This document shows positions 6,688-60,016 of a stretch of 64,000 nt of DNA, in pieces. Made by a program: the position numbers and the translations under genes. The stretch comes from Bacteroidales bacterium. GTDB taxonomy: Bacteria > Bacteroidota > Bacteroidia > Bacteroidales > FEN-979. The stretch is taken from contig JACZJJ010000039.1 in NCBI GenBank assembly GCA_014860625.1, forward strand, positions 871-64,870. Direction: 5' to 3'. Each line of letters opens with the position of its first letter. Position 1 is the stretch's first letter. The notes below the pieces were generated by a model. That model was not told the DNA's origin, made no database searches, and saw nothing but the letters and a program-made list of their open reading frames with translations.

Positions 6688-6722
6688 TTTCACCATTTCA
6701 CTATTTCACCATCTCACTATTG
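6688..6722. repeat. Phased 8-nt degenerate tandem array (about 4 units)
   Basis: caccattt cactattt caccatct cactatt. The reverse complement belongs to the GGTGAAAT/GGTGAGAT family that recurs at 44896-44983. It fills the convergent spacer between DUF1846 and MFS and encodes the last residues and stop of the MFS protein (..SEMVK*). Confidence 0.8.
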
Positions 6723-7870
6723 TTTTTAAAAATCAACGGTAATAACGGCAATGCCAGGAGGTTCAACCCTGCGAAGAGAATAAAGGTCCACTTGTACCCA
6801 ATGGTGTCGCTCAGGAACCCTCCACCGGCCAGACCGATACCTGATCCGATATTGGCGACGGCCATCAGGATAGCAAACATGGAGGCGGCAATCCGCATAT
6901 CTGTTTTACCCATCGAAGTGGCGAAATAGACGGTTTCGAAATAGCCGTATGACAAGCCGAACAGGAATACCAGTGGCCATGCCAGAAGCGGGTTGGTGAT
7001 CAGGGCAATCAGAAAAACCGTGACGAGAGAGGCATAGATTGCCAATCTCAGGGAGCGGGGATGGCCAATCCTGTCGGTGAGTTTCCCCCCGGTCACCCCA
7101 CCAACGATCACGCCAAGACCCCAAACTGCCGCGTAAAAGCCTGCCATCATATAGGAAATTCCGAAAGTTTCCTGCAGGAATGGATTGATCAGCTGGTTGG
7201 CTCCGCTGGCAACGATAAAACCAAGGATTCCCAGAAGTCCCAGGGCCACGATCTGTCTGTTCCCGAATGCCCGGAATGCGCTCCATTCAAAGGTTCGGCC
7301 GGGCGGGCGCGAAGGCTCTTTCAGAATCAGCACCAGGGGAATCGGAATAAGTGTCATCACTGCAAGCGAAATGAATACTGCATCCCAGTTGGCAAGCTGC
7401 GAAAGTATGCCAACTGTTGCCGAGATCAGCACGATGCCGAGCGCCCGCCCGGCCACCATGATGCCCTGTACCGTCCCCTCATCCTCCTTGGGGGTTGTAT
7501 CCAGGGCAAACCCGTCGGTACAGGTATCGTACATGGCCATCCCTGTCAGGGATAAAAAAGCAACCATCGTAAGCAGAACAAATGATTCCGAAGGATTGAT
7601 CAGCATGAATACCAGTTGTCCACCTGCCTGAATCAGCAGTCCGATGATGATATAGGGTTTTCGGTAACCCATGCCGAAAAGGTTCACGCGGTCGCTCAGC
7701 ATACCCAGGAAAATTTTCAGGATCAGCGGCATCAGGGCAACAGCGGAAAAGATGCCGATCTGGCTCATGGAGATTCCGAACGATCGAAGGTAGATGGCGT
7801 TAAGTGCGGTAAAATAACCCAGAATAGACCCCTGCGCAAAGTAGAGCATGGAGAAAGTTGCGTAACGCAT
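6701..7870 (-). CDS. MFS transporter
   Basis: About 390 aa and multi-pass hydrophobic, with the MFS loop motif GMLSDRVNLFGMGYRKP. The first ATG is at 7870, and a GTG at 7888 would overlap the selD stop. It lies immediately downstream of nifS-selD on the same strand. Confidence 0.8.
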   Translation of the reverse strand: MRYATFSMLYFAQGSILGYFTALNAIYLRSFGISMSQIGIFSAVALMPLILKIFLGMLSDRVNLFGMGYRKPYIIIGLLIQAGGQLVFMLINPSESFVLLTMVAFLSLTGMAMYDTCTDGFALDTTPKEDEGTVQGIMVAGRALGIVLISATVGILSQLANWDAVFISLAVMTLIPIPLVLILKEPSRPPGRTFEWSAFRAFGNRQIVALGLLGILGFIVASGANQLINPFLQETFGISYMMAGFYAAVWGLGVIVGGVTGGKLTDRIGHPRSLRLAIYASLVTVFLIALITNPLLAWPLVFLFGLSYGYFETVYFATSMGKTDMRIAASMFAILMAVANIGSGIGLAGGGFLSDTIGYKWTFILFAGLNLLALPLLPLIFKNNSEMVK

Positions 7871-7884
7871 CCGTTTTGTTCCTG

Positions 7885-10335
7885 TCACAATCTCTCTGTT
7901 TCGATGACTATTTTTCCCTCACCGGGGATGAAATTCCCGATCAGGCTCGCATGTTCCACCCCCGATTCTTTAAGGGCGGCAACCAGTGATCCTGCCTCTT
8001 TTGCCGGGACAGCAATCAGCAACCCTCCTGATGTTTGGGCATCACAGAGGATCATCTTTTCGATCTCCGATATTCGGGATCCCCATATAACAGCCGATTC
8101 TACATGTTGGAGATTGAACTTTGTCCCTCCCGGGATGATTCCTTGTGCCGCCATCTCCTCCACACCTTCAAGGAGAGGTATCCCTGATATGTCGATCTGA
8201 ACATTGACCATTTCACTGGTCACCATCTCCTTCAGATGGCCCAGCAATCCAAACCCAGTGACATCGGTGCAGGCATGCACGGTAAATCGCGTCATCAACT
8301 CAGCGGCTTTTCTGTTCAGCTCCACCATGCAGGTGATCAATTTCTCTTCGTATATCGGACGAAGCAAGCCACGTTTCATAGCCGTTGTGAGGATACCGGT
8401 TCCCAATGGTTTCGTCAGAATCAGAACATCCCCAGCCATTGCTCCCCGGTTTCTGATGATCCTGCCCGGATCCACCAACCCTGTAACGGACATGCCAAAC
8501 AACGGCTCGGTCAATTCAACGGTATGGCCGCCCAGTATCTGGATCCCTGCTTCTGCAGCTTTGTCAGATGCCCCTTTCAGAATCTCCTGCAACACCTCCA
8601 AAGGCAATCTTGTATCGGGAAAACCAACAATATTCAGTGCGTAAAGAGGTCTTCCTCCCATTGCGTAAATATCACTGATTGCATTGGCTGCTGCAATCAT
8701 ACCATAGGTATACGGATCGTCAACCACGGGAGGGATAACATCGACTGTCTGCACCAGAGCCTGTGATTCGTTCAGCTTATAAACTGCAGCATCATCGGAT
8801 GTTTCGTGCCCAACAAGAACATTTGGGTCTGTACCCCGTGGAAGCTTTTTCAGCACCTCTTCCAGCGTTTGGGGGTTGATCTTACAGGCACAGCCGAGGG
8901 CGTGGGTGTACTCGGTAAGGCGGATCGCCCCCCCTTTTACCCCTAAATCCCCTGAAGGGGACTTGCTCTGCTGCGCAGGTACCCCTAAATCCCCTGAAGG
9001 GGACTTGCTCTGCTGCGCAGGTACCCCTAAATCCCCTGAAGGGGACTTGCTCTGCTTCGCAGAATTATCCTCCCGAAGGGAGGAGGAAGCCCCCCTTAGG
9101 GGATTTAGGGGAAATGGAATTTCGTACTTCGTATTTCGTATTTCCTTATATGCTTTTACGATAATCGGTACTGCCTCCCTGATCTCCGCTTCCGTAGTCA
9201 TCCTGCCAACGGAGAAGCGGATGGTTCCCATGGCATATTCGGTTGGCACATGCATGGCTGCGAGAACTCCCGAAACACCCTCCTCTCCGGCATGGCAGGC
9301 TGCACCGGCTGATGCGGCTACTCCTTTCATTGCCAGCAACAGGGTATTGGCTTCCACACCAGGGAAACCAAGACTCAGTGTATTTGGAAGCCGAAGATCC
9401 GGGTGGCCATGAAGCAGAACTTCAGGAATCTCCTTGCTGATGCAGTTGTGAAGTAAGTCGCGAAGATTCGCGATACGGGATATGGGACTGGTGACTGGTG
9501 ACTGATGACTGGTAACTGGGAACTGATGACTGGTAACTGGGAACTGTGAACTGCGAACTGCAGACTGCCAACTGCCAACTAGTTCGGCTGCTTTTCCCAA
9601 CCCTACTATGCTGATCACATTCTCGGTTCCGGCACGGCGGTTTGCTTCATGATCGGCACCATGCATCAGCTTTGTCAGTTGCACCCCACGCCTGATGTAG
9701 AGAGCTCCTATTCCTTTGGGAGCGTATATTTTATGTCCGGCGACGGATAAGAGATCTATCCCAAGTTCATCCACTCGGACAGGGATCTTTCCTATGCTCT
9801 GAGCCGCATCGGAATGAAAAAGCACCCCCGATTCGCGGGCTATCGTGCTGATCTCAGAGATCGGCTGGATAGAGCCGGTTTCATTGTTTGCATGCATGAT
9901 TGAGATCAGGAGCGTTCCGGGACGGATAGCTGCATGGATCTCTTCCGGATCTACGATTCCAAAAGCATTGACGCCCACCCGCGTAACTTCAAAACCTTCA
10001 CTTTCCAGGTAATTGCATACCTCTGAAACTGCCGGATGTTCGATGGAGGAGGTAATGATATGGTTTCCCCGATCACGTCCGGCAAACATGACTCCCTTTA
10101 TGGCATAGTTGTTTGATTCCGTGCCTCCACCTGTAAAAACCACTTCAGCAGGGGAGCAGTGAATCATGGATGCAACCTGACTTCGGGCCTGAATCACTGC
10201 CTGAGCGGCAATCCTCCCAAATTCATGCATACTTGACGGATTCCCGAACATTCCCTCAAGGAAGGGCTTCATCGCCTCCGAAACCTTCGGATCCAACGGC
10301 GTTGTAGCGTTATAATCGAGGTAAATCGGATCCAT
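7885..10335 (-). CDS. selD: Fusion protein: NifS-like cysteine desulfurase / selenocysteine-lyase domain plus selenophosphate synthetase (SelD, Cys-type)
   Basis: The N-terminal half has class-V aminotransferase motifs (HANNETGSIQP, HSDAAQSIG, LSVAGHKIYAPKGIGALY with the PLP Lys, GAACHAG with the active Cys). The C-terminal half is SelD (IRLTEYTHALGCACKINP, DVTGFGLLGHL, GIQILGGHTV). It is one uninterrupted 816-codon frame. The SelD active-site codon is TGT (Cys), not TGA. Confidence 0.85.
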   Translation of the reverse strand: MDPIYLDYNATTPLDPKVSEAMKPFLEGMFGNPSSMHEFGRIAAQAVIQARSQVASMIHCSPAEVVFTGGGTESNNYAIKGVMFAGRDRGNHIITSSIEHPAVSEVCNYLESEGFEVTRVGVNAFGIVDPEEIHAAIRPGTLLISIMHANNETGSIQPISEISTIARESGVLFHSDAAQSIGKIPVRVDELGIDLLSVAGHKIYAPKGIGALYIRRGVQLTKLMHGADHEANRRAGTENVISIVGLGKAAELVGSWQSAVRSSQFPVTSHQFPVTSHQSPVTSPISRIANLRDLLHNCISKEIPEVLLHGHPDLRLPNTLSLGFPGVEANTLLLAMKGVAASAGAACHAGEEGVSGVLAAMHVPTEYAMGTIRFSVGRMTTEAEIREAVPIIVKAYKEIRNTKYEIPFPLNPLRGASSSLREDNSAKQSKSPSGDLGVPAQQSKSPSGDLGVPAQQSKSPSGDLGVKGGAIRLTEYTHALGCACKINPQTLEEVLKKLPRGTDPNVLVGHETSDDAAVYKLNESQALVQTVDVIPPVVDDPYTYGMIAAANAISDIYAMGGRPLYALNIVGFPDTRLPLEVLQEILKGASDKAAEAGIQILGGHTVELTEPLFGMSVTGLVDPGRIIRNRGAMAGDVLILTKPLGTGILTTAMKRGLLRPIYEEKLITCMVELNRKAAELMTRFTVHACTDVTGFGLLGHLKEMVTSEMVNVQIDISGIPLLEGVEEMAAQGIIPGGTKFNLQHVESAVIWGSRISEIEKMILCDAQTSGGLLIAVPAKEAGSLVAALKESGVEHASLIGNFIPGEGKIVIETERL
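8939..9064. repeat. 3 x 42-nt perfect/near-perfect tandem repeat inside the nifS-selD linker
   Basis: acccctaaatcccctgaaggggacttgctctgctgcgcaggt occurs three times (8939-8980, 8981-9022, 9023-9064; the last copy diverges at its end). On the minus strand it translates to (A)QQSKSPSGDLGVP x3. Confidence 0.95.
9069..9145. repeat. Composite repeat: small hairpin, inverted copy of the cccctaaatcccct module, then a 7-nt array
   Basis: cctcccgaagggagg (9069-9083). ccccccttaggggatttagggg (9090-9111) is the inverse of the unit core at 8940-8960. ttcgtac ttcgtat ttcgtat (9119-9145) has the same unit family as 49174-49240. Confidence 0.8.
9484..9580. repeat. Phased 7-nt degenerate array (about 14 units, NNNACTG) inside the NifS-like domain coding region
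   Basis: gggactg gtgactg gtgactg atgactg gtaactg ggaactg atgactg gtaactg ggaactg tgaactg cgaactg cagactg ccaactg ccaact. It is read in frame as QFPVTSH QFPVTSH QSPVTS. Confidence 0.9.
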
Positions 10336-11365
10336 TTTTTAATGTCTTACGCGCAAATTCAGCAAGTCCGATAGCAATCTCCCTGGCATCAAACACATTC
10401 ACCGGAAAGGTATACCGTTTTTGGTTCTCGCGTCGATGTATAGAGAATGAGTATGTTTCGTCGTAATAGGAGAGTACCTGGTTGGCAACGGCTGCATAAT
10501 CCTTTTCCCTGATGGAAACTAAAGCTCCCTGAGCCCTCTGCTTACCTAAACGGGTTTCAATCTTCATCACCGCTTCACACAACAATTGATCATTGATGCC
10601 GGCATATTCACCTACCAGTCTCTCAACACGAACCTCTTTCGGTACCTCAAGGATGACCAGGGGAGCCCCGTGAATCTTTCGGATTACAGGATCTGGCATT
10701 GTGACCCGTCCAATCATCCTGCTTTCATCTTCCATCCAGATAAACTGTTCTTTATCCAGTTGTTGCCAGATACTGAACAGATTATTCTCAAATTGTTCAT
10801 TGGTGGGCTGATCAGGTAACCCAATGCCACCAAAAGCGGAGCCTTTATGGGATGCAAGGGCCTCCAGGTCAATCACCTGCTCGCCGATCTCTTCCAGCTT
10901 ATTCAGCACCTCTGTTTTTCCACTCCCGGTAAAGCCACCAACAATCACTACATTCGCCGGTTCATCAAAGGAGGCCCGGATGAATTTTCGATATGCCTTA
11001 TAGCCTCCGGTAAGAAGTGTTGTGCGATATCCGTTTGTTTCGAACATCCATGCCATGTTCAAGCTGCGCATCCCTCCGCGCCAGCAGTAGATGTATAAAT
11101 TTCTCCCGTGAGTCTTTTTGCTGATATCCCGAAGTATCCTGCCCGTTTTTGGAAGGATGATATCCAGCCCCCGGATGATGGCGTGATCGCGGCCCGACTG
11201 CACGTATAAAGTACCCACTTCTGCCCTTTCTTCATCCGAAAAGATCGGGATATTGATGGCGCCAGGGATATGACCCTGCTGGAACTCGGCCGGAGAACGC
11301 ACATCCACAATCGTTTCAGATTCACTTGCTGCGAGAAAAGTTGTTGCATCCAGGTAAACAGGCAT
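10310..11365 (-). CDS. selU: tRNA 2-selenouridine synthase (SelU / YbbB / MnmH)
   Basis: Rhodanese domain with the active-site loop YCWRGGMRS, then the P-loop GGFTGSGKTE. The ATG at 11365 (MPVYLDATTF) lies behind a -7 box. The 3' end overlaps the nifS-selD start by 26 nt. Confidence 0.85.
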   Translation of the reverse strand: MPVYLDATTFLAASESETIVDVRSPAEFQQGHIPGAINIPIFSDEERAEVGTLYVQSGRDHAIIRGLDIILPKTGRILRDISKKTHGRNLYIYCWRGGMRSLNMAWMFETNGYRTTLLTGGYKAYRKFIRASFDEPANVVIVGGFTGSGKTEVLNKLEEIGEQVIDLEALASHKGSAFGGIGLPDQPTNEQFENNLFSIWQQLDKEQFIWMEDESRMIGRVTMPDPVIRKIHGAPLVILEVPKEVRVERLVGEYAGINDQLLCEAVMKIETRLGKQRAQGALVSIREKDYAAVANQVLSYYDETYSFSIHRRENQKRYTFPVNVFDAREIAIGLAEFARKTLKNGSDLPRL

Positions 11366-11389
11366 AATTGGAGATGTGGGAAACCAGCA

Positions 11390-11397
11390 CAAATGTA
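11390..11397 (-). promoter_or_regulatory. -7 box (TACATTTG on the minus strand) for the selU operon
   Basis: Plus-strand caaatgta, 24 nt upstream of the selU ATG. It sits back-to-back with the purF box. Confidence 0.5.
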
Positions 11398-11437: not shown

Positions 11438-13339
11438 ATGAGTGATTTTATCCATCACGAATGTGGCATTGCATTGGTCAGGTTGCGTAAACCGCCTGAA
11501 TATTACCTTGCCAGGTACGGCACTTCGTTTTACGGGCTGAACAAGCTGCACCTGTTGATGCAGAAGCAGCACAACCGCGGGCAGGATGGTGCCGGTGTGG
11601 CTGCCATCAAGTTTGATGTTGATCCCGGCCACCGGTATATCAACAGGATCCGGTCCAACTCATCAACACCCATCAAAGATATTTTCTCCCGTATTGGGAA
11701 TGCCGTGAAGGAAATTGAAGAGAAGCACCCTCAACGGCTTCACGATCCCGATTGGTTGAAACACCATCTGGAAATGTACGGGGAACTCCTGATGGGGCAT
11801 CTCAGGTATGGAACATTCGGCCAGAATACGTCAGACAGCCTTCATCCATTTATCCGTGAGAATAACTGGAAGACCAAAAATCTGGTGCTTGCAGGAAATT
11901 TCAACCTTACCAACGTCGATGAACTTTTCCAAAAGCTGATTGCCTATGGGCAATGTCCGGTGGAGACCTCCGATACCATCACGATCATGGAGAAGATCGG
12001 CCATTTTCTGGACGAGGAGAATGAGAAGCAGTACCAGAAGTTTAAAAAGGAGGGTTTCGAGAAGCACCAGATCTCCAGCCTGATTGCACGGGATCTTGAT
12101 GTCAGGGAAATTCTTATGAATGCCTCCGAAAATTGGGACGGAGGGTATGTGATCACCGGGATGTTTGGTCATGGCGATGCCTTCGTGATGAGAGACCCAA
12201 ACGGCATCAGGCCGGCCTTCTATTATGCCGATGATGAAGTAGTGGTTGCAGCTTCTGAGCGGCCTGCCATCCAAACAGCGTTCAATGTCAGCAGTGATCA
12301 GGTGAAGGAGCTTACACCCGGACATGCCCTGATCATAAAACGTGATGGAAAATTTGAAGAAGCACAGTATAAAACTCCCGGTCCTAAGTTCTCCTGTTCT
12401 TTTGAACGGATCTATTTTTCCAGGGGTACCGACAAGGATATCTACCTGGAGCGTAAGAAACTTGGAAAATTTCTCACCCCTGCTATTCTGAAAGCAGTGG
12501 ATTACGATATTGAGAATACTGTTTTTACATATATCCCAAATACGGCCATCGATGCCTACTTTGGATTGGTCAAGGAGTTGGATCTCTTTTGCGATGGCAT
12601 CAAACGTGACCGGTTACTGAATATAAAAGAGAGCTGTACTCCGGCACAGGTTGAAGAGATCCTGAAATTAAAACCGCGTGCCGAAAAAGTGGCTGTCAAG
12701 GATATGAAGCTGCGAACCTTCATCACTCAGGACAGCCAACGCGACGACCTTGCAGCTCACGTCTACGATATCACTTATGGAAGTATCAATGCCGGAAGTG
12801 ACAACCTGGTTGTTCTCGACGACTCAATCGTAAGAGGCACTACCCTTAAACAGAGCATTTTACGCATACTTGACCGCTTGGGCCCAAAAAAGATCATCAT
12901 TGCCTCTTCAGCTCCTCAGATTCGTTACCCCGATTGCTACGGGATCGACATGGCCAAGCTGACGGATTTTATTGCATTCAAAGCGACCATCGCACTGCTC
13001 AAGGAGACGCATCAGGAACACATCATCAATGATGTCTACAAACGGTGCAAAGAGCAGGAATTGCTTCCAAAGGAGGAGATTGTCAACTTCGTCAAAGATA
13101 TCTACAAGCCATTTTCGGCCGCCCGAATATCTGATAAAATCTCTGAGTTGCTTACTCCTCCAAACTGCCACGCCCAGGTTGAGATTATCTACCAAACGAT
13201 TGAAGACCTTCATGATGCCTGTCCGGATCATACCGGCGACTGGTACTTTACAGGGAACTACCCAACTCCTGGGGGGAATAAAGTAGTCAACAAATCTTTT
13301 CTAAATTACATTGAAGGAAAAAACGTAAGGGCTTATTAG
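11438..13339 (+). CDS. purF: Amidophosphoribosyltransferase (long Bacteroidota type)
   Basis: MSDFIHHECGIALV (Ntn Cys nucleophile after a short propeptide), NRGQDGAGVA, and the PRTase motif VVLDDSIVRGTT. The upstream part of ORF 11270 overlaps selU and was trimmed. Confidence 0.9.
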   Translation: MSDFIHHECGIALVRLRKPPEYYLARYGTSFYGLNKLHLLMQKQHNRGQDGAGVAAIKFDVDPGHRYINRIRSNSSTPIKDIFSRIGNAVKEIEEKHPQRLHDPDWLKHHLEMYGELLMGHLRYGTFGQNTSDSLHPFIRENNWKTKNLVLAGNFNLTNVDELFQKLIAYGQCPVETSDTITIMEKIGHFLDEENEKQYQKFKKEGFEKHQISSLIARDLDVREILMNASENWDGGYVITGMFGHGDAFVMRDPNGIRPAFYYADDEVVVAASERPAIQTAFNVSSDQVKELTPGHALIIKRDGKFEEAQYKTPGPKFSCSFERIYFSRGTDKDIYLERKKLGKFLTPAILKAVDYDIENTVFTYIPNTAIDAYFGLVKELDLFCDGIKRDRLLNIKESCTPAQVEEILKLKPRAEKVAVKDMKLRTFITQDSQRDDLAAHVYDITYGSINAGSDNLVVLDDSIVRGTTLKQSILRILDRLGPKKIIIASSAPQIRYPDCYGIDMAKLTDFIAFKATIALLKETHQEHIINDVYKRCKEQELLPKEEIVNFVKDIYKPFSAARISDKISELLTPPNCHAQVEIIYQTIEDLHDACPDHTGDWYFTGNYPTPGGNKVVNKSFLNYIEGKNVRAY

Positions 13340-13366
13340 GGATTAGGGATCAGCAATCAGGGATAG
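13336..13366. repeat. Phased 7-nt array (about 4.5 units, TTAGGGA/TCAGGGA family)
   Basis: ttaggga ttaggga tcagcaa tcaggga tag. The purF stop TAG is inside the first unit. The array fills the convergent spacer between purF and HIT. It is the same family as 34295-34346. Confidence 0.8.
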
Positions 13367-15494: not shown

Positions 15495-18400
15495 TTACAG
15501 TGAGTTCAAGTCAACAGGTCGTAGAATTCCGAACCATTTCAAGGTTCGTTCACCAAGCCCTTCGGCTTTCACATGTATCAGGTAGACTCCACCTGCAATT
15601 GGAATTCCGGCAAAATTCTTGAGGTCCCAGTCGATGGAAGTTTTGGCATCGGTATTCAAACCGGCATTAGAGGCTCTTGGAAGACCTATACCGGATTTAT
15701 CAACATTGAATTGCCGTATCATCGTTCCACTGAGGTCATAAATAGTAACCGTACACCTTGTCGGAAGATTGACGATTTTGATTCGGTTATCAAGCTGATT
15801 TCGCTCGTAGTCATCGTATGCATAGTAAGGATTTGGAACCACGTTGATGATATCCAGATCACTCTCCATTTTTGCCATATTGTTCTTGGACGTTGCGATC
15901 GCTTCTGTACTGAAGGAATACATGGGCCATGCTCTGTTTTGCGCTGTATCCACAGCGCTGTCCGCAATTGCTTCGGAATAGTATCGCTGGTAAGGCTTTG
16001 CAACTCTGATAAGAATCGCTACCGGACCGCTGAGCCATGGTTTACCTTGAATTGCCAGTGGCATGTTCACCCACATGGATGAGGCATAAGCCCGGGTTTT
16101 GTAGATATTATCCAGTTTCTTCAGATTCAAGACACTGAACAACTTCTGCCCAGCATCATAAGCCGGAAAGTTCAGGTTTATGGTGTCGAGAGTTAAATCC
16201 CTGTGGGCCATCACGTAAACGTAGTGTTGTCCGCCGAATACCGGGTTAAAGCTCTCATCGTGCATCCTTGACGAAGGATTCCAGATCATGTCGCGACCAT
16301 TATCAGCAACAAGCCAGGAGTTCTCTCCAAACATGATATTCAGTCGTTCGCCGGTTTCCAGATTAATGGCGTAACCAGGGAACCAACCCATGCCATACTC
16401 AGAGATATAACTGGAGTTATACATCGGGTCAGTGCTAACAACTCCGGTATCTCCGTCTACGTTCACCGATTTTCCTTTCCTCAGGTCGAATAACCGTGCA
16501 CGGCCTTCCGAAATGAGAGAGTCGGGGCAAAGCTCAACAACCGGGGATCTTGTCCATAGCGATTTATCGGTAGTGATAATGATATCAACGCTGGCCAGAT
16601 TCTCAAGCCTGTTAAATTTCTTGGAGTTGGAGCTGTATGCGGGGCCTACGGAAAGTTGCTGTGTATAGGCACAAAGAGCGTAGGGTGCCCAGGTTCCTCC
16701 CTGGATTCCTCCAACGAATGGATGAGTTGCACCCATGACCTGGATCTGCTGGAAATTCTTATTCGGATCCCAGGGATCATCGGCTGCCATATCCCAGTCA
16801 TAAAGTGATGAATTGCCACCGGCTTTATAGGTACCAGCCCTGATCCAGTTCACATCGATTCCCGGAGGATTATCCCAGTCAGGCACACCGCCGAGCCATT
16901 TATTGGCCGGATCAGCATAGACTGCAGGTGGTGCGAAGAGGAGTCCGTTATCATCGGTGTGAATAGCGCCAGGAAGTGTATCTCCCGGGTTTGGAATCTG
17001 TGAAATCTCAAGAGCAATCCCAAGATCCAGGAAGAGTTGTTCATACGGATAGATCGTTGTCGTATCGGAAATGTAAGTAATCCCTGTCCTGGTATCTACC
17101 ATTTTCCAAAGGCCGAATCGAATGTTCGGATTGGTAAAGGTGGGATTTGCAGGTCCCGTAACCATCGAGTCAAATGTTACAATATATTCACTGGCAATCA
17201 CATTCAAGGGGTCAACAACCTGAACATTCAACGGTCCGTAACCTGTCATATATTTTGCCTGGTAAGCAATTGGATAGTCCTGGCTACCGTATTTATTGGT
17301 GGCGCTGGCAGGTGGTTTGCTCATAATTTCCTGAACAGAGGAGGGATCCAGAAAGAGGACCTTTCCACCGTTACCCTGACCCTGAATACGGGTAATTGTA
17401 GGACCGTCACCGTATAGGGAGTTTGGTACATCATCGAGAGGAATATGCGGAATTCCCGTATAACTCTTCAGGTTACTCCGGCCAGCCAGGTAGGGCTTTT
17501 TCTGCCCTGCAAGTCCTGTCGGGTCTGTCTGGTTGTAAGGAGCATATTGATTGTAAGCATAGGAAATCGCCATGTAGTAATACTGCTTGTGGTTGATCAG
17601 GGTAAGATCCTGGGTAGCGAATTTGTCTTCGGTCAATTCAAATGAATGAACAACACCAGTATTGGTTCCATCTACCATCACTTCGCCAACGTTTCCATTG
17701 AGGGCCTGATCAAATGTCCAGTTAACCAGTTTGGTAACATCGTTCTTGATATCGCACTGGAAGACAAGACGTGATTTGCTCGGGTCATAAAGATCTGCTG
17801 CACTTACGGTAGCATCTTTTAACTGGAAGACCTGGTATCCCTCAAACCTGTAAAGGGAGTCGTTTCGTTGGTTGTGAGGTAAGGTATCCGGGTTTGGAAT
17901 TTTCGGATCATACTCTACATATCTCTCCTGGTAGTTATTTCCTGCATCATTCACTTTTCTGTTAGTGATGTACATGATCAACTTACCATCCATCTCCTGG
18001 ATGGTAAGGTCAGGAGCATTTGGTCCGTTGAGAACCGCAAAACAGTTGTCAAACAAACTCTGACAAAGGTCGTCAACAACACGCAATTTCTCAACAGCTT
18101 CCCACGGAGTTCCGGAAATCGTACGTGCCCATGGAATACCAACAGTGATGTAGTTACAGGCACCCGGGCCGAGTGTAAATGGTCCTGCTGACTGCATAAA
18201 ACGGCGGTCGCTCGGGTTGTTGCCGGCGGTCTCCTCCGTCCAGTATTTGTCTCCGTTTGGCGGTTGGCCAGCAGTTCCCCAGTCGCAGGGATCCGAATCA
18301 CCCGGAAACATAAAGGTACAAGCCGGGCCAACACCACCTGCACTGGTGTGTGCATTTCCACCGTAGAGCATTGTCGTATTGTCTTTCCAGATCCCGCGGA

Positions 18401-19775: not shown

Positions 19776-19839
19776 AGTGCTGATATTTTTGAATATACTG
19801 ATACAATTTGTGTTCACCATATGATGTATCCTCCCTTGA

Positions 19840-34346: not shown

Positions 34347-34365
34347 TTTCATTGATATATATTAA

Positions 34366-44896: not shown

Positions 44897-45011
44897 CGAA
44901 ATGGCGAAATGGCGAAATGGTGAGATGGTGAAATGGTGAGATGGTGAAATGGTGAAATGGCGAAATGACGAAATGGCGAAATAGCGAAAAGCGAAAAGCG
45001 AAAAGCGAAAA
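44896..45011. repeat. Phased array: 11 x 8 nt (GCGAAATG/GTGAAATG/GTGAGATG), then 4 x 7 nt (GCGAAAA)
   Basis: gcgaaatg x3, gtgagatg, gtgaaatg, gtgagatg, gtgaaatg x2, gcgaaatg, acgaaatg, gcgaaata, gcgaaaa x4. It lies in the divergent spacer and contains an ATG in nearly every 8-nt unit. Confidence 0.95.
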
Positions 45012-45396: not shown

Positions 45397-45471
45397 ATAG
45401 TTTTCCTTAGCTGATCAACTTCCCGGATATTTTGTTTATTTTTACAGATTCTAAATTAAATATTCAACACC

Positions 45472-46020: not shown

Positions 46021-46104
46021 GACGTGAGACGAAGCACAGGGCACAGGGCGCAGGGCGCAGAGTGCAAAGATCAATCCCTGAGCTCTGAGCTCTGAGCTCT
46101 GAGC
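46021..46104. repeat. Phased 7-nt array, 12 units in one continuous phase, with gradual unit drift
   Basis: gacgtga gacgaag cacaggg cacaggg cgcaggg cgcagag tgcaaag atcaatc cctgagc tctgagc tctgagc tctgagc. It starts at the base after the sodC stop and supplies the GH3 C-terminal tail (..AQSSELRD*) and stop. Confidence 0.9.
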
Positions 46105-48347: not shown

Positions 48348-48437
48348 AATGATTGTATTTCTCACAAAGATGCACAAGATTGCCGGCAAAGTTGTATCTT
48401 GTGGGATAGAATGTGATGAAAAATTAATCAAACAGAG

Positions 48438-49157: not shown

Positions 49158-49240
49158 ATCCCCTAAAGGGGACTTACTTTACTTCGTAATTCTACCTTCG
49201 TACTTCCAGTTCTGACTTCTGGCATCTGACCTCTGACTAA
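49151..49240. repeat. Composite repeat: cccctaaatcccctaaagggg module plus 9.5 x 7-nt array (ACTTCGT/CTTCTGA family)
   Basis: The module (49151-49171) is a near copy of the unit core at 8940-8960. The array is ttacttt acttcgt aattcta ccttcgt acttcca gttctga cttctgg catctga cctctga. Segment 49195-49237 is a reverse-complement copy of 56805-56847 with 4 mismatches in 43. Confidence 0.9.
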
Positions 49241-49367: not shown

Positions 49368-50807
49368 ATGGCAACTGTTGACAGTAATTCTTCACAACAA
49401 GCGCTGAACATGATCCTCGCAGCGATCGGACTTCGCGAGTCGAGCTATTCAGGCAAGGTAACAATAGAGGGAAAGGATCCCATTTTAACTTCCCGTCATC
49501 GCTTTGGTGAGGTCATGGCGGCAGCCCAGGCTGCTTTTGGCATGGCCCTGGGAGAGATCTGGCAGCAACGAGGGGGTTCGGTCCAGGATGTGACAACCAA
49601 TGTACGTAATGCTGTCCATCAGCACCACGGTATTGCATTTATGCGTCAGAATGGCCGGCAGCTTCCTTTTACCGACTATGGAGCAAGCGTTGGTCTTGAC
49701 TCGCCGATAAGCGGTGAGTTTTATCCTACCCGTGACGGGCGTTTCGTAAAAATCGAATTGTATTATCCCCGATTGGTTGATGCTGTCTACAAAGTCCTCA
49801 AATGTGCACCAACGCAACGAGCCGTAGAGGCTGCGATCATGCAGTGGGATGCCGAAGCCCTGGAACTTGCGATCCGTGAGGAATCCGGAGCCATTGGAGT
49901 AGTTCGCACAGCCGAGGAGTGGCTGGCACATCCTGTAGGACGCCGCCTGGCATCCAAGCCGGTTGTAGAGGTTATAAAAATCGGCGAAAGTGATCCCATC
50001 CCATTTCCAACCGGTGGAGATATGCCTTTATCGGGGATCCGGGTACTCGACTCCTCCCACGTGATTGGCGGACCGGTTACGGCCCGCACCCTTGCCGAAT
50101 TTGGTGCCGACGTGTTGCATCTCTCAAAACCGAACTACCCCGACCACCTGAACTGGCGTTTGGAAACCGACAACGGAAAGCGTGCAGCCTATTGCGATTT
50201 TGATGTGGAGGCCGACAAACGCAAGTTCTTTGAGCTTCTGCAGAAAGCAGATGTATTTACCTGTTCCTATCTGAACCTCGATCAGAGGGGAATCTCTCCC
50301 CGCAGCCTCGCAGCCGCCAAGCCCGGGATCATTGCCCATGAACTGCGATGTTTTGACTTTGAAGGGGAGTGGGCTAATTTCCGCGGATTTGACATGATGG
50401 CGGTAACAGTTTCGGGATATGTCGATGCAGAAGGAGCTGTGGATGCCCCAATGATGCCTGTGCAGGCTATTTTTGCCGATTACCTTGCGGCTTACGCAGG
50501 ATCGGCAGGAGTGGCTGCGGCACTTCTACGCAGGGCTACCGAGGGGGGAAGCTACCAGGTTAGGGTATCGCTGACCCGAATGTGCATGTGGGCACAGGAA
50601 CTGGGACTTCTCGACCATAGTGCACTCAATGGCACATTACCCTATGCCGATATCGTGGCTGAAACAGACCTGCCTCTTGCTAAGATTGAGAGTCCGTTTG
50701 GTGAGATCATTTACCTGCCAACCATGATCGACATGCCCGATATTAAACCGAAGTTTGAGCGTGGTCCGCAGCCACTCGGGTCTTCGCTCCTTGAATGGAT
50801 AGACTGA
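49368..50807 (+). CDS. Family III CoA-transferase (CaiB/BaiF type)
   Basis: GIRVLDSSHVIGGPVTARTLAEFGADVLHL is the typical family III N-terminal Rossmann motif, here after an extra ~210-aa N-terminal region. Confidence 0.75.
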   Translation: MATVDSNSSQQALNMILAAIGLRESSYSGKVTIEGKDPILTSRHRFGEVMAAAQAAFGMALGEIWQQRGGSVQDVTTNVRNAVHQHHGIAFMRQNGRQLPFTDYGASVGLDSPISGEFYPTRDGRFVKIELYYPRLVDAVYKVLKCAPTQRAVEAAIMQWDAEALELAIREESGAIGVVRTAEEWLAHPVGRRLASKPVVEVIKIGESDPIPFPTGGDMPLSGIRVLDSSHVIGGPVTARTLAEFGADVLHLSKPNYPDHLNWRLETDNGKRAAYCDFDVEADKRKFFELLQKADVFTCSYLNLDQRGISPRSLAAAKPGIIAHELRCFDFEGEWANFRGFDMMAVTVSGYVDAEGAVDAPMMPVQAIFADYLAAYAGSAGVAAALLRRATEGGSYQVRVSLTRMCMWAQELGLLDHSALNGTLPYADIVAETDLPLAKIESPFGEIIYLPTMIDMPDIKPKFERGPQPLGSSLLEWID

Positions 50808-54456: not shown

Positions 54457-54525
54457 GAAGCTGGAATTGAGTTACTCTTAGTTATCATCCGTAAATGTAA
54501 GAAATTTATTCCGCTCCAAAAAAAA

Positions 54526-54553
54526 CGTCTAACTTCTGACTTCTAACTTTTCT
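54526..54553. repeat. Phased 7-nt array (about 4 units, TTCTGAC/TTCTAAC)
   Basis: cgtctaac ttctgac ttctaac ttttcta g. It contains the stop codon of the ABC-2 permease gene and belongs to the same family (reverse orientation) as 56786-56897. Confidence 0.7.
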
Positions 54554-55727
54554 AGTGCCATTTAAAAAGCTTCAACCCCACGGTAAAGAAAACGACTCCT
54601 GTCAACGTCAGAATCAGGGAAGGGATTGCGGTTTGAGCAAATCCGGCTCCTTCAATGAAGATACTCCGGATGCCGTCGGCCAGCATAGTGAGTGGCAGGG
54701 GTTGAATGATCGGGATTGCCCAGTCGGGGAAATTGTGGTAGCTGAAGAAGATGCCGGAGAGGATCATCATGGGCATGCTCACCACATTGATAAAGGCATT
54801 TCCAATTTCGGTTTTAGAGGTATGGCAGGCCAGGAAGATCCCGATGCCGGAGAACGCGATATTCCCTGCCAGAAACAGAACTAACAGTGCGGGAATATTT
54901 CCCTGGATGGTGATCCCGAAAGCCAGCCAGGCGAAGAGCACGAGCAAAATTGCTTCGATCACATTCATCACCAGCCTTACGGTGATCATCGCTATCAGGT
55001 AGTTGGATCGCTTCATCGGAGTGGCAATCATCCGCCTGAGCAGCTTTTTCGATCTCGTATCAATAATATAGTATCCCAGTCCCCACAGGCAAGAGAACAT
55101 CACACCCATCGCAATCATCCCGGGGATCAGAAAATCGATGTAGCGGGTTCCAGTGACGGTGAGAACGTCAACTTCCGTCGCTGAAGCAGCACTCAGATCC
55201 TCTTCGTATCCTGGAGACTGGATCCTGGATGCTGGGTGCTGGGTGCTGGATGCTGGATCCTGGATCTCAGATCCCAGATCGCGTATCCCGTATCCCGTAT
55301 CCCGATTCAGATCCCTAGCTGGGATTTGGTTCAGGACAGGTGCCATCCTTACATATGTCAACTGGGCATCGGGATTCATCGGGTCAAAATGATACCTGTA
55401 CCCACTGTCTCCGATGGTAACTGCCACATTCACATGCCCCCGTTTGAGCTGAACCATGGCCGCTTCCCAGGGCATCTTCTCCAGTTGGAAGGTGGTGTTT
55501 CCCAGTTTATCATCCTTCAACACGATGGAATATGTTCCGGTGTCGGCTGAAATCAGTGCCACATGTCTGACACTTTCTGGTTTACGGGTAAAGGCCAGTC
55601 CAAGTCCGATCGACATCAGGATAGGAAAGCCAATACCCCAGAACAGTACCCCCGGCTCCCGAACCTTTTCCAGAACATTTGCCAGGATAAGCTGCCACAA
55701 TTGGTTATTCCTGATCCTGTCAATCAT
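54552..55727 (-). CDS. ABC-2 type transporter permease
   Basis: An N-terminal TM helix, a large external loop, then 5 C-terminal TM helices (ABC2_membrane pattern). It overlaps the ATPase gene by 8 nt. The loop contains an in-frame 7-nt array. Confidence 0.8.
   Translation of the reverse strand: MIDRIRNNQLWQLILANVLEKVREPGVLFWGIGFPILMSIGLGLAFTRKPESVRHVALISADTGTYSIVLKDDKLGNTTFQLEKMPWEAAMVQLKRGHVNVAVTIGDSGYRYHFDPMNPDAQLTYVRMAPVLNQIPARDLNRDTGYGIRDLGSEIQDPASSTQHPASRIQSPGYEEDLSAASATEVDVLTVTGTRYIDFLIPGMIAMGVMFSCLWGLGYYIIDTRSKKLLRRMIATPMKRSNYLIAMITVRLVMNVIEAILLVLFAWLAFGITIQGNIPALLVLFLAGNIAFSGIGIFLACHTSKTEIGNAFINVVSMPMMILSGIFFSYHNFPDWAIPIIQPLPLTMLADGIRSIFIEGAGFAQTAIPSLILTLTGVVFFTVGLKLFKWH
55208..55312. 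repeat. Phased 7-nt array, 15 units (105 nt), in frame inside the ABC-2 permease loop
   Basis: tcctgga gactgga tcctgga tgctggg tgctggg tgctgga tgctgga tcctgga tctcaga tcccaga tcgcgta tcccgta tcccgta tcccgat tcagatc. It is read as DTGYGIR DLGSEIQ DPASSTQ HPASRIQ SPGYEED. Confidence 0.9.
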
Positions 55728-56542: not shown

Positions 56543-56803
56543 ATGGAAAAGAGTAAAAAGTTTTGCCAGAGTTGCGGGATGCCACTCAGCAAGGACGAAC
56601 GGGGCGGCGGTACCGAAGCCGACGGGTCAAAAAGTGTTAAGTACTGTTCGCATTGTTATGAGAAAGGCAAGTTCACACTCCCCGACATCACTGCACAAGG
56701 CATGAAGGAGCGGGTGAAGGAAAAGATGTCGGAGATGGGATATTCGCCACTTGTGGCATGGTTCTTCACATTTAATATTCCGAAGCTGGAGAGGTGGAGA
56801 TAA
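56543..56803 (+). CDS. Small zinc-ribbon domain protein
   Basis: MEKSKKFCQSCGMPL...KYCSHCYEKGKF has two CxxC pairs, the pattern of the 'putative zinc ribbon' family. The last residues (..KLERWR*) run into the array. Confidence 0.6.
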   Translation: MEKSKKFCQSCGMPLSKDERGGGTEADGSKSVKYCSHCYEKGKFTLPDITAQGMKERVKEKMSEMGYSPLVAWFFTFNIPKLERWR

Positions 56804-56897
56804 AGGCAGAGGTCAGAAGTTAGAAGTCAGAACTGGAAGTACGAAGGACGAGGGACGAGGGACGAATTCGACTACGAAGTTAGAACGTAGAAGTAAT
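56786..56897. repeat. Phased 7-nt array, about 16 units (NAGAAGT / CGAGGGA families)
   Basis: ctggaga ggtggag ataaagg cagaggt cagaagt tagaagt cagaact ggaagta cgaagga cgaggga cgaggga cgaattc gactacg aagttag aacgtag aagtaat. It lies in a convergent spacer. Confidence 0.9.
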
Positions 56898-57704: not shown

Positions 57705-57760
57705 AAGTTAGAGGTCAGAAGTTAGAACTGGAAGTACAAAGTATGAAGATAGAAGTAAAT
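57705..57760. repeat. Phased 7-nt array (about 8 units), a direct copy of part of 56786-56897
   Basis: aagttag aggtcag aagttag aactgga agtacaa agtatga agataga agtaaat. Segment 57711-57741 equals 56809-56846 minus one 7-nt unit and with one substitution. Confidence 0.9.
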
Positions 57761-58637: not shown

Positions 58638-58663
58638 TCATTCATTTTTAAACACAACAATTT

Positions 58664-59923
58664 ATGGTACTTAACACAATTCTACTTCAGGCCGTGACAT
58701 CCGGCCTGGACACCGGATCAACCGGTTTTATGTTGCTGGCTACCAGCCTGGTGATGCTGATGACTCCCGGACTGGCCTTTTTCTACGGAGGATTGGCTAC
58801 CCGTCGGAACATTCTGGGTATCATGATTCAGAGCTTTGTCTCCCTCGGGTGGACCACTGTTCTCTGGATCTTTTTCGGTTATTCGCTCTGCTTCTCCGGT
58901 GGGGAAGGCGGAATCATCGGAAATTTTGACAAAGCCTTTTTAATGGGGATTGCACCTGACGCACTCTGGTCGGGCAACGGGAAAATCCCGGAGATGGTAT
59001 TTGTTGCTTACCAGATGATGTTTGCCATCATCACCCCCGCCCTCATCACAGGTGCCTTTGTGAACAGGGTATCATTTAAGTCTTACATGATTTTTCTCAC
59101 CGTTTGGCAGATCATGGTATACTACCCGTTTGTACATATGATCTGGGGTGGCGGACTTCTCGCCGAATGGGGTGTTCTTGATTTTGCCGGAGGAATTGTG
59201 GTTCACGCCACGGCTGGATTTGCTGCACTTGCATCCGTATTCTATGTCGGAGCCCGTGTCAACAAGAGTTCTGTCCCAAACAGCATTCCCCTCGTTGCAA
59301 TCGGAAGCGGCCTCCTTTGGTTCGGATGGTACGGATTCAACGCCGGAAGTGAAGTGCAGGTCGATTTTATCACCTCAACTGCCTTCATCAATACCGATAT
59401 TGCCGCCTCTTTTGCCACCATCGCCTGGCTGATTGTGGAATGGACCCGGGAGCGAAAACCTAAGTTCGTCGGACTTCTCACAGGGGGCATCGCCGGATTG
59501 GCGACCATCACGCCGTGTGCCGGATTTGTCCCGGTGTGGGCTGCTCCCATTATTGGAACGGCTGCTGGTCTTGTCTGTTACCTGGCCGTTCAGTGGAAAA
59601 ACAAGATGCAGTGGGATGATGCCCTCGATGTGTGGGGTGTGCACGGAGTTGGAGGTGTTTTGGGAACAATCCTACTGGGTGTCTTCGCTTCAACAGCAGT
59701 CAACCCGGCCGGTGCCGATGGATTGATTTTCGGGGGAGGGTCCTTCCTTCTGAAACAGATCGTTGCTGTTGTAGTAGCATCAGCATACGCTTTTATTTTC
59801 ACCTACGTGATGCTGATGATCATCAACCTCATCGCCAAAGTAAAGGTGACACCCGAACATGAGCATCTGGGTCTGGATGAGGCCCTGCACGGGGAGAGAG
59901 CCTACGACGAAGGGGTTCTTTAA
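58664..59923 (+). CDS. amtB: Ammonium transporter
   Basis: FAGGIVVHATAGFAAL and DDALDVWGVHGVGGVLG (twin-His region), 11 TM helices, 419 aa. Confidence 0.95.
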   Translation: MVLNTILLQAVTSGLDTGSTGFMLLATSLVMLMTPGLAFFYGGLATRRNILGIMIQSFVSLGWTTVLWIFFGYSLCFSGGEGGIIGNFDKAFLMGIAPDALWSGNGKIPEMVFVAYQMMFAIITPALITGAFVNRVSFKSYMIFLTVWQIMVYYPFVHMIWGGGLLAEWGVLDFAGGIVVHATAGFAALASVFYVGARVNKSSVPNSIPLVAIGSGLLWFGWYGFNAGSEVQVDFITSTAFINTDIAASFATIAWLIVEWTRERKPKFVGLLTGGIAGLATITPCAGFVPVWAAPIIGTAAGLVCYLAVQWKNKMQWDDALDVWGVHGVGGVLGTILLGVFASTAVNPAGADGLIFGGGSFLLKQIVAVVVASAYAFIFTYVMLMIINLIAKVKVTPEHEHLGLDEALHGERAYDEGVL

Positions 59924-59932
59924 TAAAATTGG

Positions 59933-60016
59933 GTTCTCGCTGATTTTCGCTGATTAATTCGCAAATTTTCGCAGAAATTTGAAATGATTACCGATCATCA
60001 GCGAGAACTATTTTTT
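59933..60016 (+). terminator. Long hairpin closed by a perfect 12-bp inverted repeat, enclosing a ~10-nt periodic array, followed by T6
   Basis: gttctcgctgat (59933-59944) pairs with atcagcgagaac (59997-60008). The loop reads ttctcgctga ttttcgctga ttaattcgca aattttcgca gaaatttgaa... It is followed by ctatttttt. Confidence 0.5.

Follow-up and report, generated by a model that had tools for sequence, protein, structure and literature searches.

Short tandem arrays of heptamer and octamer units at gene ends and within proteins of a Bacteroidales genome, interpreted as satellite-like DNA

The DNA studied here, referred to below as the window, is a stretch of 64,000 nt (positions 871 to 64,870, forward strand, of contig JACZJJ010000039.1) from a Bacteroidales bacterium. 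Its genes are of housekeeping or transport type and include MetH, S-adenosylhomocysteine (AdoHcy) hydrolase, GreA, an Orn/Lys/Arg decarboxylase, an ammonium transporter and a two-component system, together with a SusC-type TonB receptor carrying a CarboxypepD_reg domain. Tandem arrays of short units, 7–9 nt long and directly abutting, lie at gene ends and inside proteins of this stretch. A preliminary description had listed 16 blocks as real, phased and degenerate arrays. We found that 15 of them, 1,060 nt in all, are genuine degenerate tandem arrays; the sixteenth is part of a hairpin. As argued below, the arrays are probably satellite-like DNA of heptamers and octamers, lengthened by local slippage, copied and homogenized between loci, and kept where selection tolerates it. 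They are listed here with the strand where one was assigned and the supporting evidence in brackets (TRF, Tandem Repeats Finder; lag, autocorrelation scan; ORF, open reading frame; GH3, glycoside hydrolase family 3).

6680–6722: 8-mer array of TTTCACCA/TCTCACTA, about 5 units, with a 16-nt higher-order period (TRF periods 8 and 16, lag 8)
9119–9145, minus strand: 7-mer array of ATTTCGT/ACTTCGT, 3.7 units, in the NifS-SelD linker (TRF, translation)
9484–9580, minus strand: 7-mer array of the NNACTGN family, about 14 units with a 21-nt super-period, in a loop of the NifS-like domain (TRF, translation)
13335–13366: 7-mer array of ATTAGGG/ATCAGGG, about 4 units (TRF)
24510–24592: compound array, 9-mer AGGTTGGAC in 5.6 copies, then the 7-mers TGCCAAC and NNACTGN (TRF, lag 9)
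34295–34346: 7-mer array of GATTAGC/GATCAGG, about 7 units (TRF periods 7 and 14)
34366–34420: 8-mer array of NTCATSAC, about 6 units, at the 5' end of ORF 34352–34732 (TRF period 8, lag 8)
44896–45011: 8-mer GCGAAATG/GTGAAATG in 11.8 copies, then 7-mer GCGAAAA in 5 copies (TRF)
46021–46105: compound array of GACGNGA, GCACAGG (3.9 copies) and CTGAGCT (4 perfect copies) (TRF)
48228–48332, minus strand: compound array of AATGAGG-type units, GGGACGAAGGAAGAG (2 copies) and AATTTCC (4.9 copies), in the GH3 signal-peptide region (TRF)
49174–49240, plus strand: ACTTC composite, beginning 17 nt past the AlkD stop (exact 16-mer TACTTCCAGTTCTGAC)
54524–54553, plus strand: short array of ACTTCTN (3.7 units) directly beside the stop codon of the ABC-2 permease (TRF)
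55208–55312, minus strand: 7-mer ATCCTGG in 8.4 copies plus ATCCCGT in 3.9 copies, in a loop of the ABC-2 permease (TRF, Pfam)
56786–56897, minus strand: ACTTC composite (GAAGT on the plus strand) with extra GAAGGAC/GAGGGAC units (TRF, exact 16-mer at 56826–56841, minus strand)
57705–57760, minus strand: ACTTC composite, a degenerate copy in the divergent spacer between DUF6125 and Gcw (16-mer TACTTCCAGTTCTAAC at 57721–57736, minus strand)

TRF detected period-7, -8 or -9 arrays at essentially all of the coordinates listed earlier. When its calls were merged (period 6–11, at least 25 nt), the window held 15 arrays covering 759 nt, compared with a mean of 0.39 (about 11 nt) and a maximum of 2 in 100 dinucleotide-preserving shuffles of the window. 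A TRF-independent autocorrelation scan, with a threshold of at least 75% self-match over 28 nt, gave 17 matches at lag 7, five at lag 8 and one at lag 9 in the window, compared with about zero in shuffles, and zero matches at lags 4–6, 10 and 12. The proposed periods of 7, 8, 9 and about 10 nt were thus borne out for 7, 8 and a single 9, but not for 10. Two further matches at lag 11 (35268–35310) came from about 2.5 copies of an AT-rich 11-mer; this locus is marginal and was excluded from the family. Most arrays are degenerate, with 75–90% matches in TRF, and three blocks (13336–13366, 54526–54553 and 57705–57760) are short or very degenerate. The last of these has no TRF score and is recognizable mainly as a diverged copy of the arrays at 49.2 and 56.8 kb (83% identity to 56812–56851). 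Perfect arrays also occur, namely CTGAGCT in four copies in the window and GATCCGG in five copies in the permease gene of a relative, L004.

The claim that the arrays have neither hairpins nor spacers held as well. On RNA folding of 13 arrays (9119–9145 and 54526–54553 were left out), none beat its own shuffles (z from −1.9 to +1.0). The units directly abut, and the CRISPR pattern, repeats of about 24–40 nt with unique spacers, was not found. An Rfam search of the window returned two tRNAs and no family covering the arrays, and Pfam searches revealed no transposase, integrase or reverse transcriptase among the window genes. The block at 59945–59996, which had been counted among the arrays, is instead part of a hairpin at 59933–60008 with 28-nt arms at 79% complementarity (z = −6.1).

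The possibility that the arrays are assembly artefacts was excluded by independent data. A separate assembly made from reads (L296; Logan SRR12686320) matches the window at 100% over 3,627 nt (44928–48554), a stretch that takes in two arrays and part of a third; the array at 46021–46105 is reproduced there at 100%, and the one at 44896–45011 is reproduced as well. As the arrays recur in this contig and at orthologous positions in metagenome-assembled genomes (MAGs) from other studies, they are not products of assembly. Position 1 of the contig (window 44928) falls inside the 8-mer array upstream of DUF454. An independent short-read contig therefore ends within an array, indicating that arrays fragment short-read assemblies of this organism.

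Next, we examined where the arrays lie, using a maximal-ORF model. Non-ORF DNA makes up 6.8% of the window, yet it holds 49% of the array bases, and arrays account for about 12% of the intergenic DNA. Among gaps of at least 30 nt, arrays were present in five of the seven convergent ones (six of seven if the marginal 11-mer locus is counted) and in 4 of the 17 co-directional or divergent ones. The convergent enrichment gave p = 0.042 in a conservative one-sided Fisher test and p = 0.009 with the marginal locus. The earlier tally of five convergent, three divergent and four co-directional junctions was reproduced. Where a convergent junction has an array, the gap is almost wholly array; convergent pairs without arrays are spaced by just 13–16 nt. 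The view that the arrays sit on gene boundaries is therefore right as to a strong enrichment at gene ends, but it does not cover four arrays that are translated in frame inside proteins.

At the convergent junctions, the array at 6680–6722 fills the gap between the stops of DUF1846 (6650) and MFS (6701) and supplies the last seven codons of the MFS gene, and that at 13335–13366 fills the gap between the stops of a GATase-like gene (13339) and HIT (13379). The gap between superoxide dismutase (SOD) and GH3 is filled by 46021–46105, which supplies the last 11 aa and the stop of GH3, and the Zn-ribbon/DUF6125 gap by 56786–56897, which overlaps the Zn-ribbon stop. The compound array at 24510–24592, with TRF matches of 92% at period 9 and 100% at period 7, occupies the gap as far as the AdoHcyase stop (24591). 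The last 14 or so residues and the stop (34337) of a DPP-IV-like peptidase come from 34295–34346, which has stops in all frames; the Pfam Peptidase_S9 match of this protein ends at aa 710 of 721. The divergent spacer between PALP and DUF454 contains the array at 44896–45011, which extends over the putative start of DUF454.

Nine of the 11 intergenic or boundary arrays are adjacent to a stop codon, seven of these nine within 1 nt of it, and two or three lie near start codons. In two clear co-directional cases the array adjoins the upstream stop, away from the downstream start. A heptamer array crosses all three reading frames in succession (7 mod 3 = 1), and in the boundary arrays two or three of these frames have stops on the incoming gene's strand. 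An ORF thus enters an array and runs until the first array-encoded stop, so that the overlap with stop codons is a passive consequence and no indication of a signal. The overlap with start and stop codons reported earlier is real, but most of that with stops has this passive origin.

The orientation of the arrays relative to transcription was inconsistent. With respect to the upstream gene, ACTTC units read as sense at 49174 and as antisense at 54526; in the co-directional cases, G-rich and C-rich strands alternate. Terminator-like sites were not in excess in the window (16 found, 20.4 expected). We also considered a Rho utilization (rut)-like loading tract, with the C-rich strand in the transcript; this fits one of three co-directional cases and is unsupported.

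Four arrays, at 9119–9145, 9484–9580, 48228–48332 and 55208–55312, are read in frame within Pfam-supported coding sequences (CDSs). All are free of stops on the coding strand: the three frames hold 0/0/0 stops at 9119, 9484 and 48228, and the array at 55208 is open in the frame used. No frame of 9119–9145 has a stop on either strand, and the 0/0/0 stops of 9484–9580 on the coding strand compare with 2/4/3 on the opposite one. In the ABC-2 permease (Pfam ABC2_membrane_3 over aa 27–385) the array spans 105 nt, that is 15 units or 35 codons, in a large extracytoplasmic loop. The CDS of this permease is 1,092 nt long in L003, 1,113 nt in L004, 1,134 nt in L001 and L002 and 1,176 nt in the window, all intact; the length steps of 21, 42 and 84 nt are located in the GATCCGG-type array. 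The permease of L036 is without an array.

The ORF at 7885–10335 (minus strand) encodes a NifS-SelD fusion of 816 aa, the nearest homologues of which have 774–831 aa. This architecture is common in Bacteroidota (thousands of matches), where the protein typically has 726–745 aa. Alignment placed the extra residues at two hotspots, a loop after GLGKAAELV and the inter-domain linker. The loop contains the array at 9484–9580, which encodes QFPVTSH-type 7-aa repeats and scores higher in TRF at its 21-nt super-period (92% matches) than at period 7 (81%). Loop lengths in array-bearing homologues are 22, 29, 29, 29 and 36 aa, compared with 7–13 aa in array-free ones. The linker contains the array at 9119–9145, translated as KEIRNTKYEIP, as well as a 42-bp repeat in three copies. 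Orthologous alleles of the permease and NifS-loop arrays differ by multiples of 21 nt and stay open, and no out-of-frame allele was found at in-CDS arrays in 5–10 orthologues.

The array at 48228–48332 encodes the signal-peptide region of the GH3 glycosidase. Leader length is 41 aa in the window, about 26 aa in L001 and about 45 aa in L003, with the block order kept and copy numbers that differ, and all of these leaders retain the basic n-region, the hydrophobic core and an 'AQ' context for cleavage. The GH3 protein of L036 has a conventional leader with far less array sequence. In L295, a contig syntenic with window 5–24 kb, GATCCCG occurs in four copies inside a peptidase M14 gene, and the NifS loop holds both 7-mer and 8-mer arrays.

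The NifS-SelD region has further features. The 42-bp repeat (8938–9063) is a perfect tandem, in frame, and encodes the 14-aa repeat AQQSKSPSGDLGVP. Its core, CCCCTAAATCCCCTNAAGGGGAC, is a small hairpin (TCCCCT-NAA-AGGGGA) present in five copies in the window, including 9083–9114 (minus strand) and 49149–49190. The core is translated both ways in the linker, as PLNPLRG and SPSGDLGV, and relatives hold 1–4 copies of these peptides. The intergenic copy at 49149 leads straight into the ACTTC heptamer array. This hairpin looks like a second, REP-like small dispersed repeat (repetitive extragenic palindrome) associated with the arrays. The fusion gene belongs to a selenium-utilization cluster (7885–11392, minus strand) with a rhodanese/SelU-like gene (10310–11392) upstream, and a GCACK motif replaces selenocysteine in NifS-SelD.

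The internal order of units bears on how the arrays arose. Adjacent units of the long arrays resemble one another more closely than the same units do when shuffled (p = 0.008 for 9484–9580, p < 0.0005 for 55208–55312, and p = 0.033 and 0.001 in two others), and unit dissimilarity grows with separation. Both features are as expected for growth by local duplication. The period can also switch within one array, from 8-mers to 7-mers at 44896–45011.

Relatives were then compared. By decarboxylase identity among GTDB representatives, the nearest ones are uncultured Prolixibacteraceae/Bacteroidales MAGs (L001 96%, L002 95%, L037 93%, L003 92%, L004 89% and L036 86%), with good synteny; Prolixibacteraceae belong to the Marinilabiliales within the Bacteroidia. 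The alignment of orthologous junctions that had been proposed beforehand revealed differences in presence and in unit number. Past the 3' end of AlkD, ACTTC units occur in the window and in L037, with a difference of one 7-nt unit; in L002 and L003 the units are ACTGC, which suggests concerted replacement inside a persistent array. Upstream of DUF454, arrays of one family measure 116 nt (window), 33 nt (L001) and at least 94 nt (L002). At the ABC2/AAperm junction, L002 and L003 have an empty gap of 52–53 nt; arrays of 30–150 nt are present there in the window (54524–54553), L001, L004 and L036, those of the three relatives being longer than that of the window. At the GH3 end L001 has a different array, of the 8-mer ATTTCCTA. 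In L295, the junction orthologous to 6680–6722 has an 8-mer array of other sequence, that orthologous to 13335–13366 has a GATTAGN-family array, and an ACTGCCA array occupies a divergent junction that is bare in the window. Exact-protein look-ups for strain variants gave no record for AlkD or for a 1,441-aa protein of the window; that for SOD led to one contig, 100% identical to the window.

The arrays are concentrated in this clade. TRF density was 3–7 arrays per 10 kb in L001–L004, L036 and L037, compared with about 0–1 in most other loci, and about ten Endozoicomonas loci had none by TRF. In the lag scan, the close relatives held 18 lag-7 and seven lag-8 loci in 98 kb; distant loci gave a flat profile across lags, with eight lag-7 loci in 774 kb. 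The heptamer excess in the clade is thus about 18-fold over distant loci.

As the preliminary description had noted, unit families recur at distant loci of the window. The segment at 6688 matches 44916–44949 in reverse complement (91% over 34 nt), the region at 24564 matches 9549–9581 (82% identity), 13335–13366 matches 34291–34348 (83%), and 54524–54553 matches 57705–57726 (95%). The GAAGT/ACTTC family gave the clearest structure, a composite of about 60 nt that consists of [ACTTCGT]n, a 6-nt ACTTCC unit and [AGTTCTG ACTTCTG ACCTCTG]. The 6-nt unit moves the phase by one base and thus forms a phase-slip scar. The copy at 49174–49240 matches that at 56.8 kb at 84% (49184 against 56804, 55 nt) and that at 57.7 kb at 77%, and an identical 16-mer, TACTTCCAGTTCTRAC, occurs at 49201 (plus strand), 56841 (minus) and 57736 (minus), where 0.06 occurrences are expected. 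The scar is also present in L001, at a non-orthologous junction, in L003, L037 and L122, and twice in L152. A phase slip common to several copies is a derived character; the copies therefore stem from each other through ectopic copying and are not of independent origin. The composite has defined ends (5' TTACTTC and CTRACTT 3'); no inverted termini, target-site duplication or consistent flank was found among the copies compared. Other families too recur at non-orthologous loci with a similar variant order; for example, a composite very similar to 34366–34420 lies at L003 14844–14876.

Scans of metagenome and viral contig collections used ACTTCCAGTTCTNAC, a pattern with 14 specified bases that returned mostly chance matches; among about 240 loci listed, two (L122 and L152) had a heptamer context. 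The L152 metagenome contig has inverted composite copies at 489 (plus strand) and 1178 (minus strand), about 700 nt apart, the first preceded by a GATGCCG array. We also considered a terminator module formed by the composite and an upstream hairpin. The hairpin accompanies three window copies but is missing in L001, L037, L122 and L152, one window copy has no upstream gene on that strand, and terminator-like sites are not enriched; the idea was rejected.

Together, these results argue for satellite-like DNA built of heptamers and octamers: local slippage would make it grow, ectopic copying would spread and homogenize it, and it would persist where it is tolerated. The arrays belong to the class of 5–11-nt 'long simple sequence repeats', whose best-known example is the cyanobacterial STRR arrays, here proliferated in one Prolixibacteraceae-like Bacteroidota lineage. 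To judge from the sequence patterns, they would lengthen and shorten by slipped-strand duplication or deletion of one or a few units. Variants would then move within and between arrays by ectopic copying or gene conversion and so give rise to dispersed families, as the shared scar suggests. Purifying selection, the presumed cause of the observed placement, would remove harmful arrays. Survivors would build up past stop codons, mostly between convergent genes, where there is no promoter to disrupt, and in some divergent spacers, and also in permissive parts of proteins such as loops, linkers, signal peptides and C-terminal tails. Within genes, just those units that are free of stops on the coding strand can be read through, and just changes of 21 nt (7 aa) persist. 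Arrays that contain stops truncate or extend the neighbouring ORF, as the boundary ORFs described above do. A dedicated cellular function would be unnecessary, and exaptation, for example as signal-peptide sequence, appears to have occurred.

Several points weigh against this reading. Its statistics have one 64-kb window and about 100 kb from relatives as their base. The neighbour-similarity gradient and the 7-nt and 21-nt differences between orthologues fit slippage, but no strain- or read-level variation was observed, the same-species comparison being a single contig identical to the window. By itself, slippage accounts neither for the sharp bias to 7 and 8 nt nor for the presence of one composite at unrelated junctions, and ectopic conversion can act only where the recipient already has an array. 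Stepwise shrinkage would not predict the clean, empty sites of L002 and L003. The internal order of the composite is kept across genomes whose proteins are 92–96% identical, which is compatible with some constraint. Recurrence of the cores ACTG and GCTAA across phyla hints at sequence-specific causes, mutational or functional, that pure neutrality does not predict. Passive tolerance at the least constrained sites predicts the bias towards 3' ends and convergent junctions, and an insulator or terminator role predicts it equally.

We also compared the arrays with described systems, and found that they are members of the described heptamer class, distinct from its named unit families. The survey of long simple sequence repeats by Mrázek, Guo and Shah (2007), as summarized in two later papers (PMC4679880, PMC4692102), found units of 5–11 nt, with heptamers the commonest and a sporadic phylogenetic distribution, and slippage was suggested. 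As far as that summary goes, the window arrays are alike in their head-to-tail units of 5–11 nt, their occurrence beyond chance, heptamer dominance, lineage specificity and enrichment outside coding sequence; tandem units in this size range, an excess over shuffles and heptamer predominance were all found here. On the same summary, the window is unlike the survey in having many unit families and compound arrays in 64 kb, in the arrays being rather degenerate, and in heptamers read in frame in proteins, where the survey noted mainly multiple-of-three units inside genes. The Prolixibacteraceae-like lineage appears to lie outside the survey as summarized.

The short tandemly repeated repetitive (STRR) sequences of Calothrix and Nostoc, as cited in PMC4692102, are three tandem heptanucleotides. 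Named at the outset as the closest analogue, they are a fair one: in both cases several dispersed heptamer families lie mostly between genes, in tandem and without spacers, and no function is established. The host here is, however, a member of the Bacteroidota and not a cyanobacterium, and 8-mer and 9-mer arrays stand alongside the heptamers. The STRR consensus units reportedly given by Mazel et al. in 1990 are CCCCAGT, TTGGTCA and CAACAGT. No tandem copies of these units were found in the window or in seven relatives; the window unit ACTGGGA (reverse complement TCCCAGT) is one mismatch from the reported STRR1 unit.

It had been stated that no such arrays were described from Bacteroidota, but MacGregor (2015) reported TAACTGA arrays in Beggiatoaceae, cyanobacteria and five Bacteroidetes, including at ORF peripheries, with stop codons in the unit dictating ORF ends (PMC4679880). 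Both systems have ACTG-core heptamers in Bacteroidetes hosts that adjoin start and stop codons, in-ORF copies confined to the edges of proteins (among them a glycosyl hydrolase terminus), close relatives without an array at the same junction, and 'other heptamer direct repeats' nearby. The window arrays differ in preferring 3' ends and convergent junctions, whereas TAACTGA lies mostly in 'forward' orientation just upstream of start codons, and in comprising many unit families rather than one. TAACTGA did not occur in tandem in the window (one single copy) or in the relatives.

The G-rich heptamers of Rehm et al. (2015), GGGAATC in Xanthomonas and GGGGA(C/T)T in Nostoc, are about 90% intergenic and nearer the end of the upstream ORF; their positions are conserved among relatives, length and sequence vary, and a function is not established (PMC4692102). 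The window arrays are likewise mostly intergenic, close to upstream ORF ends and conserved in position with variation, and the GGGATTA/GGGATCA family is similar in composition. Most window families, however, are not G-rich and are unable to form G-quadruplexes, and no tandem copies of GGGAATC or GGGGA(C/T)T were found in the window. REPs and bacterial interspersed mosaic elements (BIMEs) are palindromic hairpins of enterobacteria and pseudomonads, and REPs are mobilized by REP-associated tyrosine transposases (RAYTs). They resemble the window arrays as small dispersed repeats at gene 3' ends and between convergent genes, sometimes clustered; the window arrays lack dyad symmetry, and there is no transposase gene in the window.

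Termination or insulation, a binding array and a contingency locus had all been offered as roles, and none is supported in the absence of structure, terminator excess, strand rule and out-of-frame alleles. The best surviving alternative to satellite-like DNA is that the arrays are functional cis-elements, that is, phased DNA or RNA binding sites for a lineage-specific protein, or terminators or insulators at gene ends; variants of the idea invoke a single-strand-binding regulator of the S1/Csp/CsrA type, as has been proposed for TAACTGA repeats, a rut-like Rho-loading tract or a REP/BIME-like site for a nucleoid protein or topoisomerase. Strong enrichment directly after stops and at convergent junctions fits this idea, as does the share of intergenic DNA taken up. 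The arrays are unstructured with periodic pyrimidine-rich motifs on one strand, the order of the ACTTC composite is constant across loci and genomes, array position is conserved among relatives, something other than canonical terminator-like sites, which are not enriched, may terminate transcription, and MacGregor has proposed a regulatory role for TAACTGA arrays (PMC4679880). However, orientation follows no rule, many unrelated units at two or three periods would need as many binding specificities, the unit family at the same junction can differ between relatives (ACTTC or ACTGC) and some junctions are cleanly empty. Arrays also lie within protein loops and signal peptides, where termination is implausible. 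On balance, we regard a cis-element role as unlikely.

Further down in plausibility, and in our view improbable, is that at least the ACTTC composite is non-autonomous mobile DNA, copied by a trans-acting transposase, reverse transcriptase or primase-polymerase and later diversified. The composite shares its scar and defined ends at no fewer than three non-orthologous window loci and in L001, L003, L122 and L152, other families occupy non-orthologous loci across genomes (for instance the 34366 8-mer composite and its L003 counterpart), relatives have cleanly filled or empty junctions, and the arrays are associated with the second small hairpin element. But terminal inverted repeats, target-site duplications and a conserved flanking motif are lacking, the window has no mobile-element gene, copy length and unit number differ at every locus, and ectopic gene conversion between existing arrays explains the shared scar equally well.

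A related and similarly improbable proposal holds that the arrays are hairpin-less, repeat-built elements that are actively copied to gene ends or specifically bound by a trans-acting factor common to several phyla. If true, it would account for one composite with its scar at unrelated junctions, for periods of 7 and 8 only, and for ACTG and GCTAA cores in cyanobacteria, Beggiatoaceae, Desulfobacteraceae and this lineage, and it would make the arrays either a new, 'mobile microsatellite' class or a conserved system for marking gene ends. Contingency loci, in which single-unit slippage toggles genes or tunes promoters as in the phase variation of host-adapted pathogens, are hardly credible here: gain or loss of a heptamer shifts the frame, some arrays are perfect, and arrays occur in surface or transport proteins and two divergent promoter regions, but most are degenerate, which suppresses slippage, most lie downstream of genes and not in promoters or 5' coding regions, all in-CDS alleles in the orthologues are in frame and differ by multiples of 21 nt, and the affected genes are of housekeeping type (NifS-SelD, ABC permease, peptidase).

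In cyanobacteria, heptamer arrays have been on record for over 30 years; their recognition as a general bacterial class dates from 2007. The value of the present set is that of a good model lineage; no new mechanism or kind of element is established. The window and its syntenic relatives form a natural experiment in which the same junctions are filled, empty or different in unit number, and the 21-nt-only steps within genes show directly how selection filters a frame-shifting repeat. The arrays supply a signal peptide, C-terminal tails, stop codons and loop or linker inserts, and are thus a source of protein novelty. As the shared scar shows, one family at least is passed from locus to locus instead of originating afresh at each. 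In practical terms, arrays fragment short-read assemblies and distort ORF calling at gene ends in this clade.

The array-rich region at 44.9–50.8 kb has a mosaic gene content relative to L001, L002, L003, L036 and L037. L001 has no Cu/Zn SOD, L002 and L037 have no GH3, and in L003 GH3 is a pseudogene in four fragments. Among the compared relatives, the CoA-transferase gene at 49368–50807 is present in the window only, and L002 and L036 have several kb of other DNA between the decarboxylase and AlkD. We examined whether GH3 was lost in L002 and L037 through recombination between arrays. The flanks align (45978–46037 and 48346–48451) but the 150-nt middle does not, a result that is only suggestive; the earlier proposal that the arrays serve as recombination substrates is thus weakly suggested.

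Two short, overlapping ORFs adjoin the 8-mer array at 34366–34420. The first (34352–34732) has no Pfam match and the second (34729–35124) has a C-terminal D-ser_dehydrat domain alone; full-length members of this family have an N-terminal alanine-racemase-like domain as well. The region 34352–35124 may be a decayed or truncated gene with its 5' part covered by the array.

GCTAANN arrays lie beside a homologue of the decarboxylase gene in two loci from Desulfobacteraceae/Thermodesulfobacteriota MAGs (L016 110–256 and 5345–5602; L019 4915–5113). Their core is that of the window GATTAGC family (reverse complement GCTAATC). The decarboxylase is 69–71% identical across Bacteroidales, Desulfobacteraceae and Endozoicomonas, which suggests that the gene may have been horizontally transferred.

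An assignment of the 1,261-aa and 1,441-aa ORFs of the window to rpoB and rpoC was rejected, the first being a SusC-like TonB-dependent receptor and the second having no Pfam match. The latter (15495–19820, minus strand; 1,422 aa in L295) lies between a PorV/DUF5723-like gene and the SusC-like receptor, and may encode a large surface protein or one associated with the type IX secretion system. The hairpin at 59933–60008 has an RNA minimum free energy of −30.4 kcal/mol and lies between the stop of the ammonium transporter (59923) and the start of the histidine kinase (60037); it is probably a terminator or a regulatory stem-loop, outside the array family.

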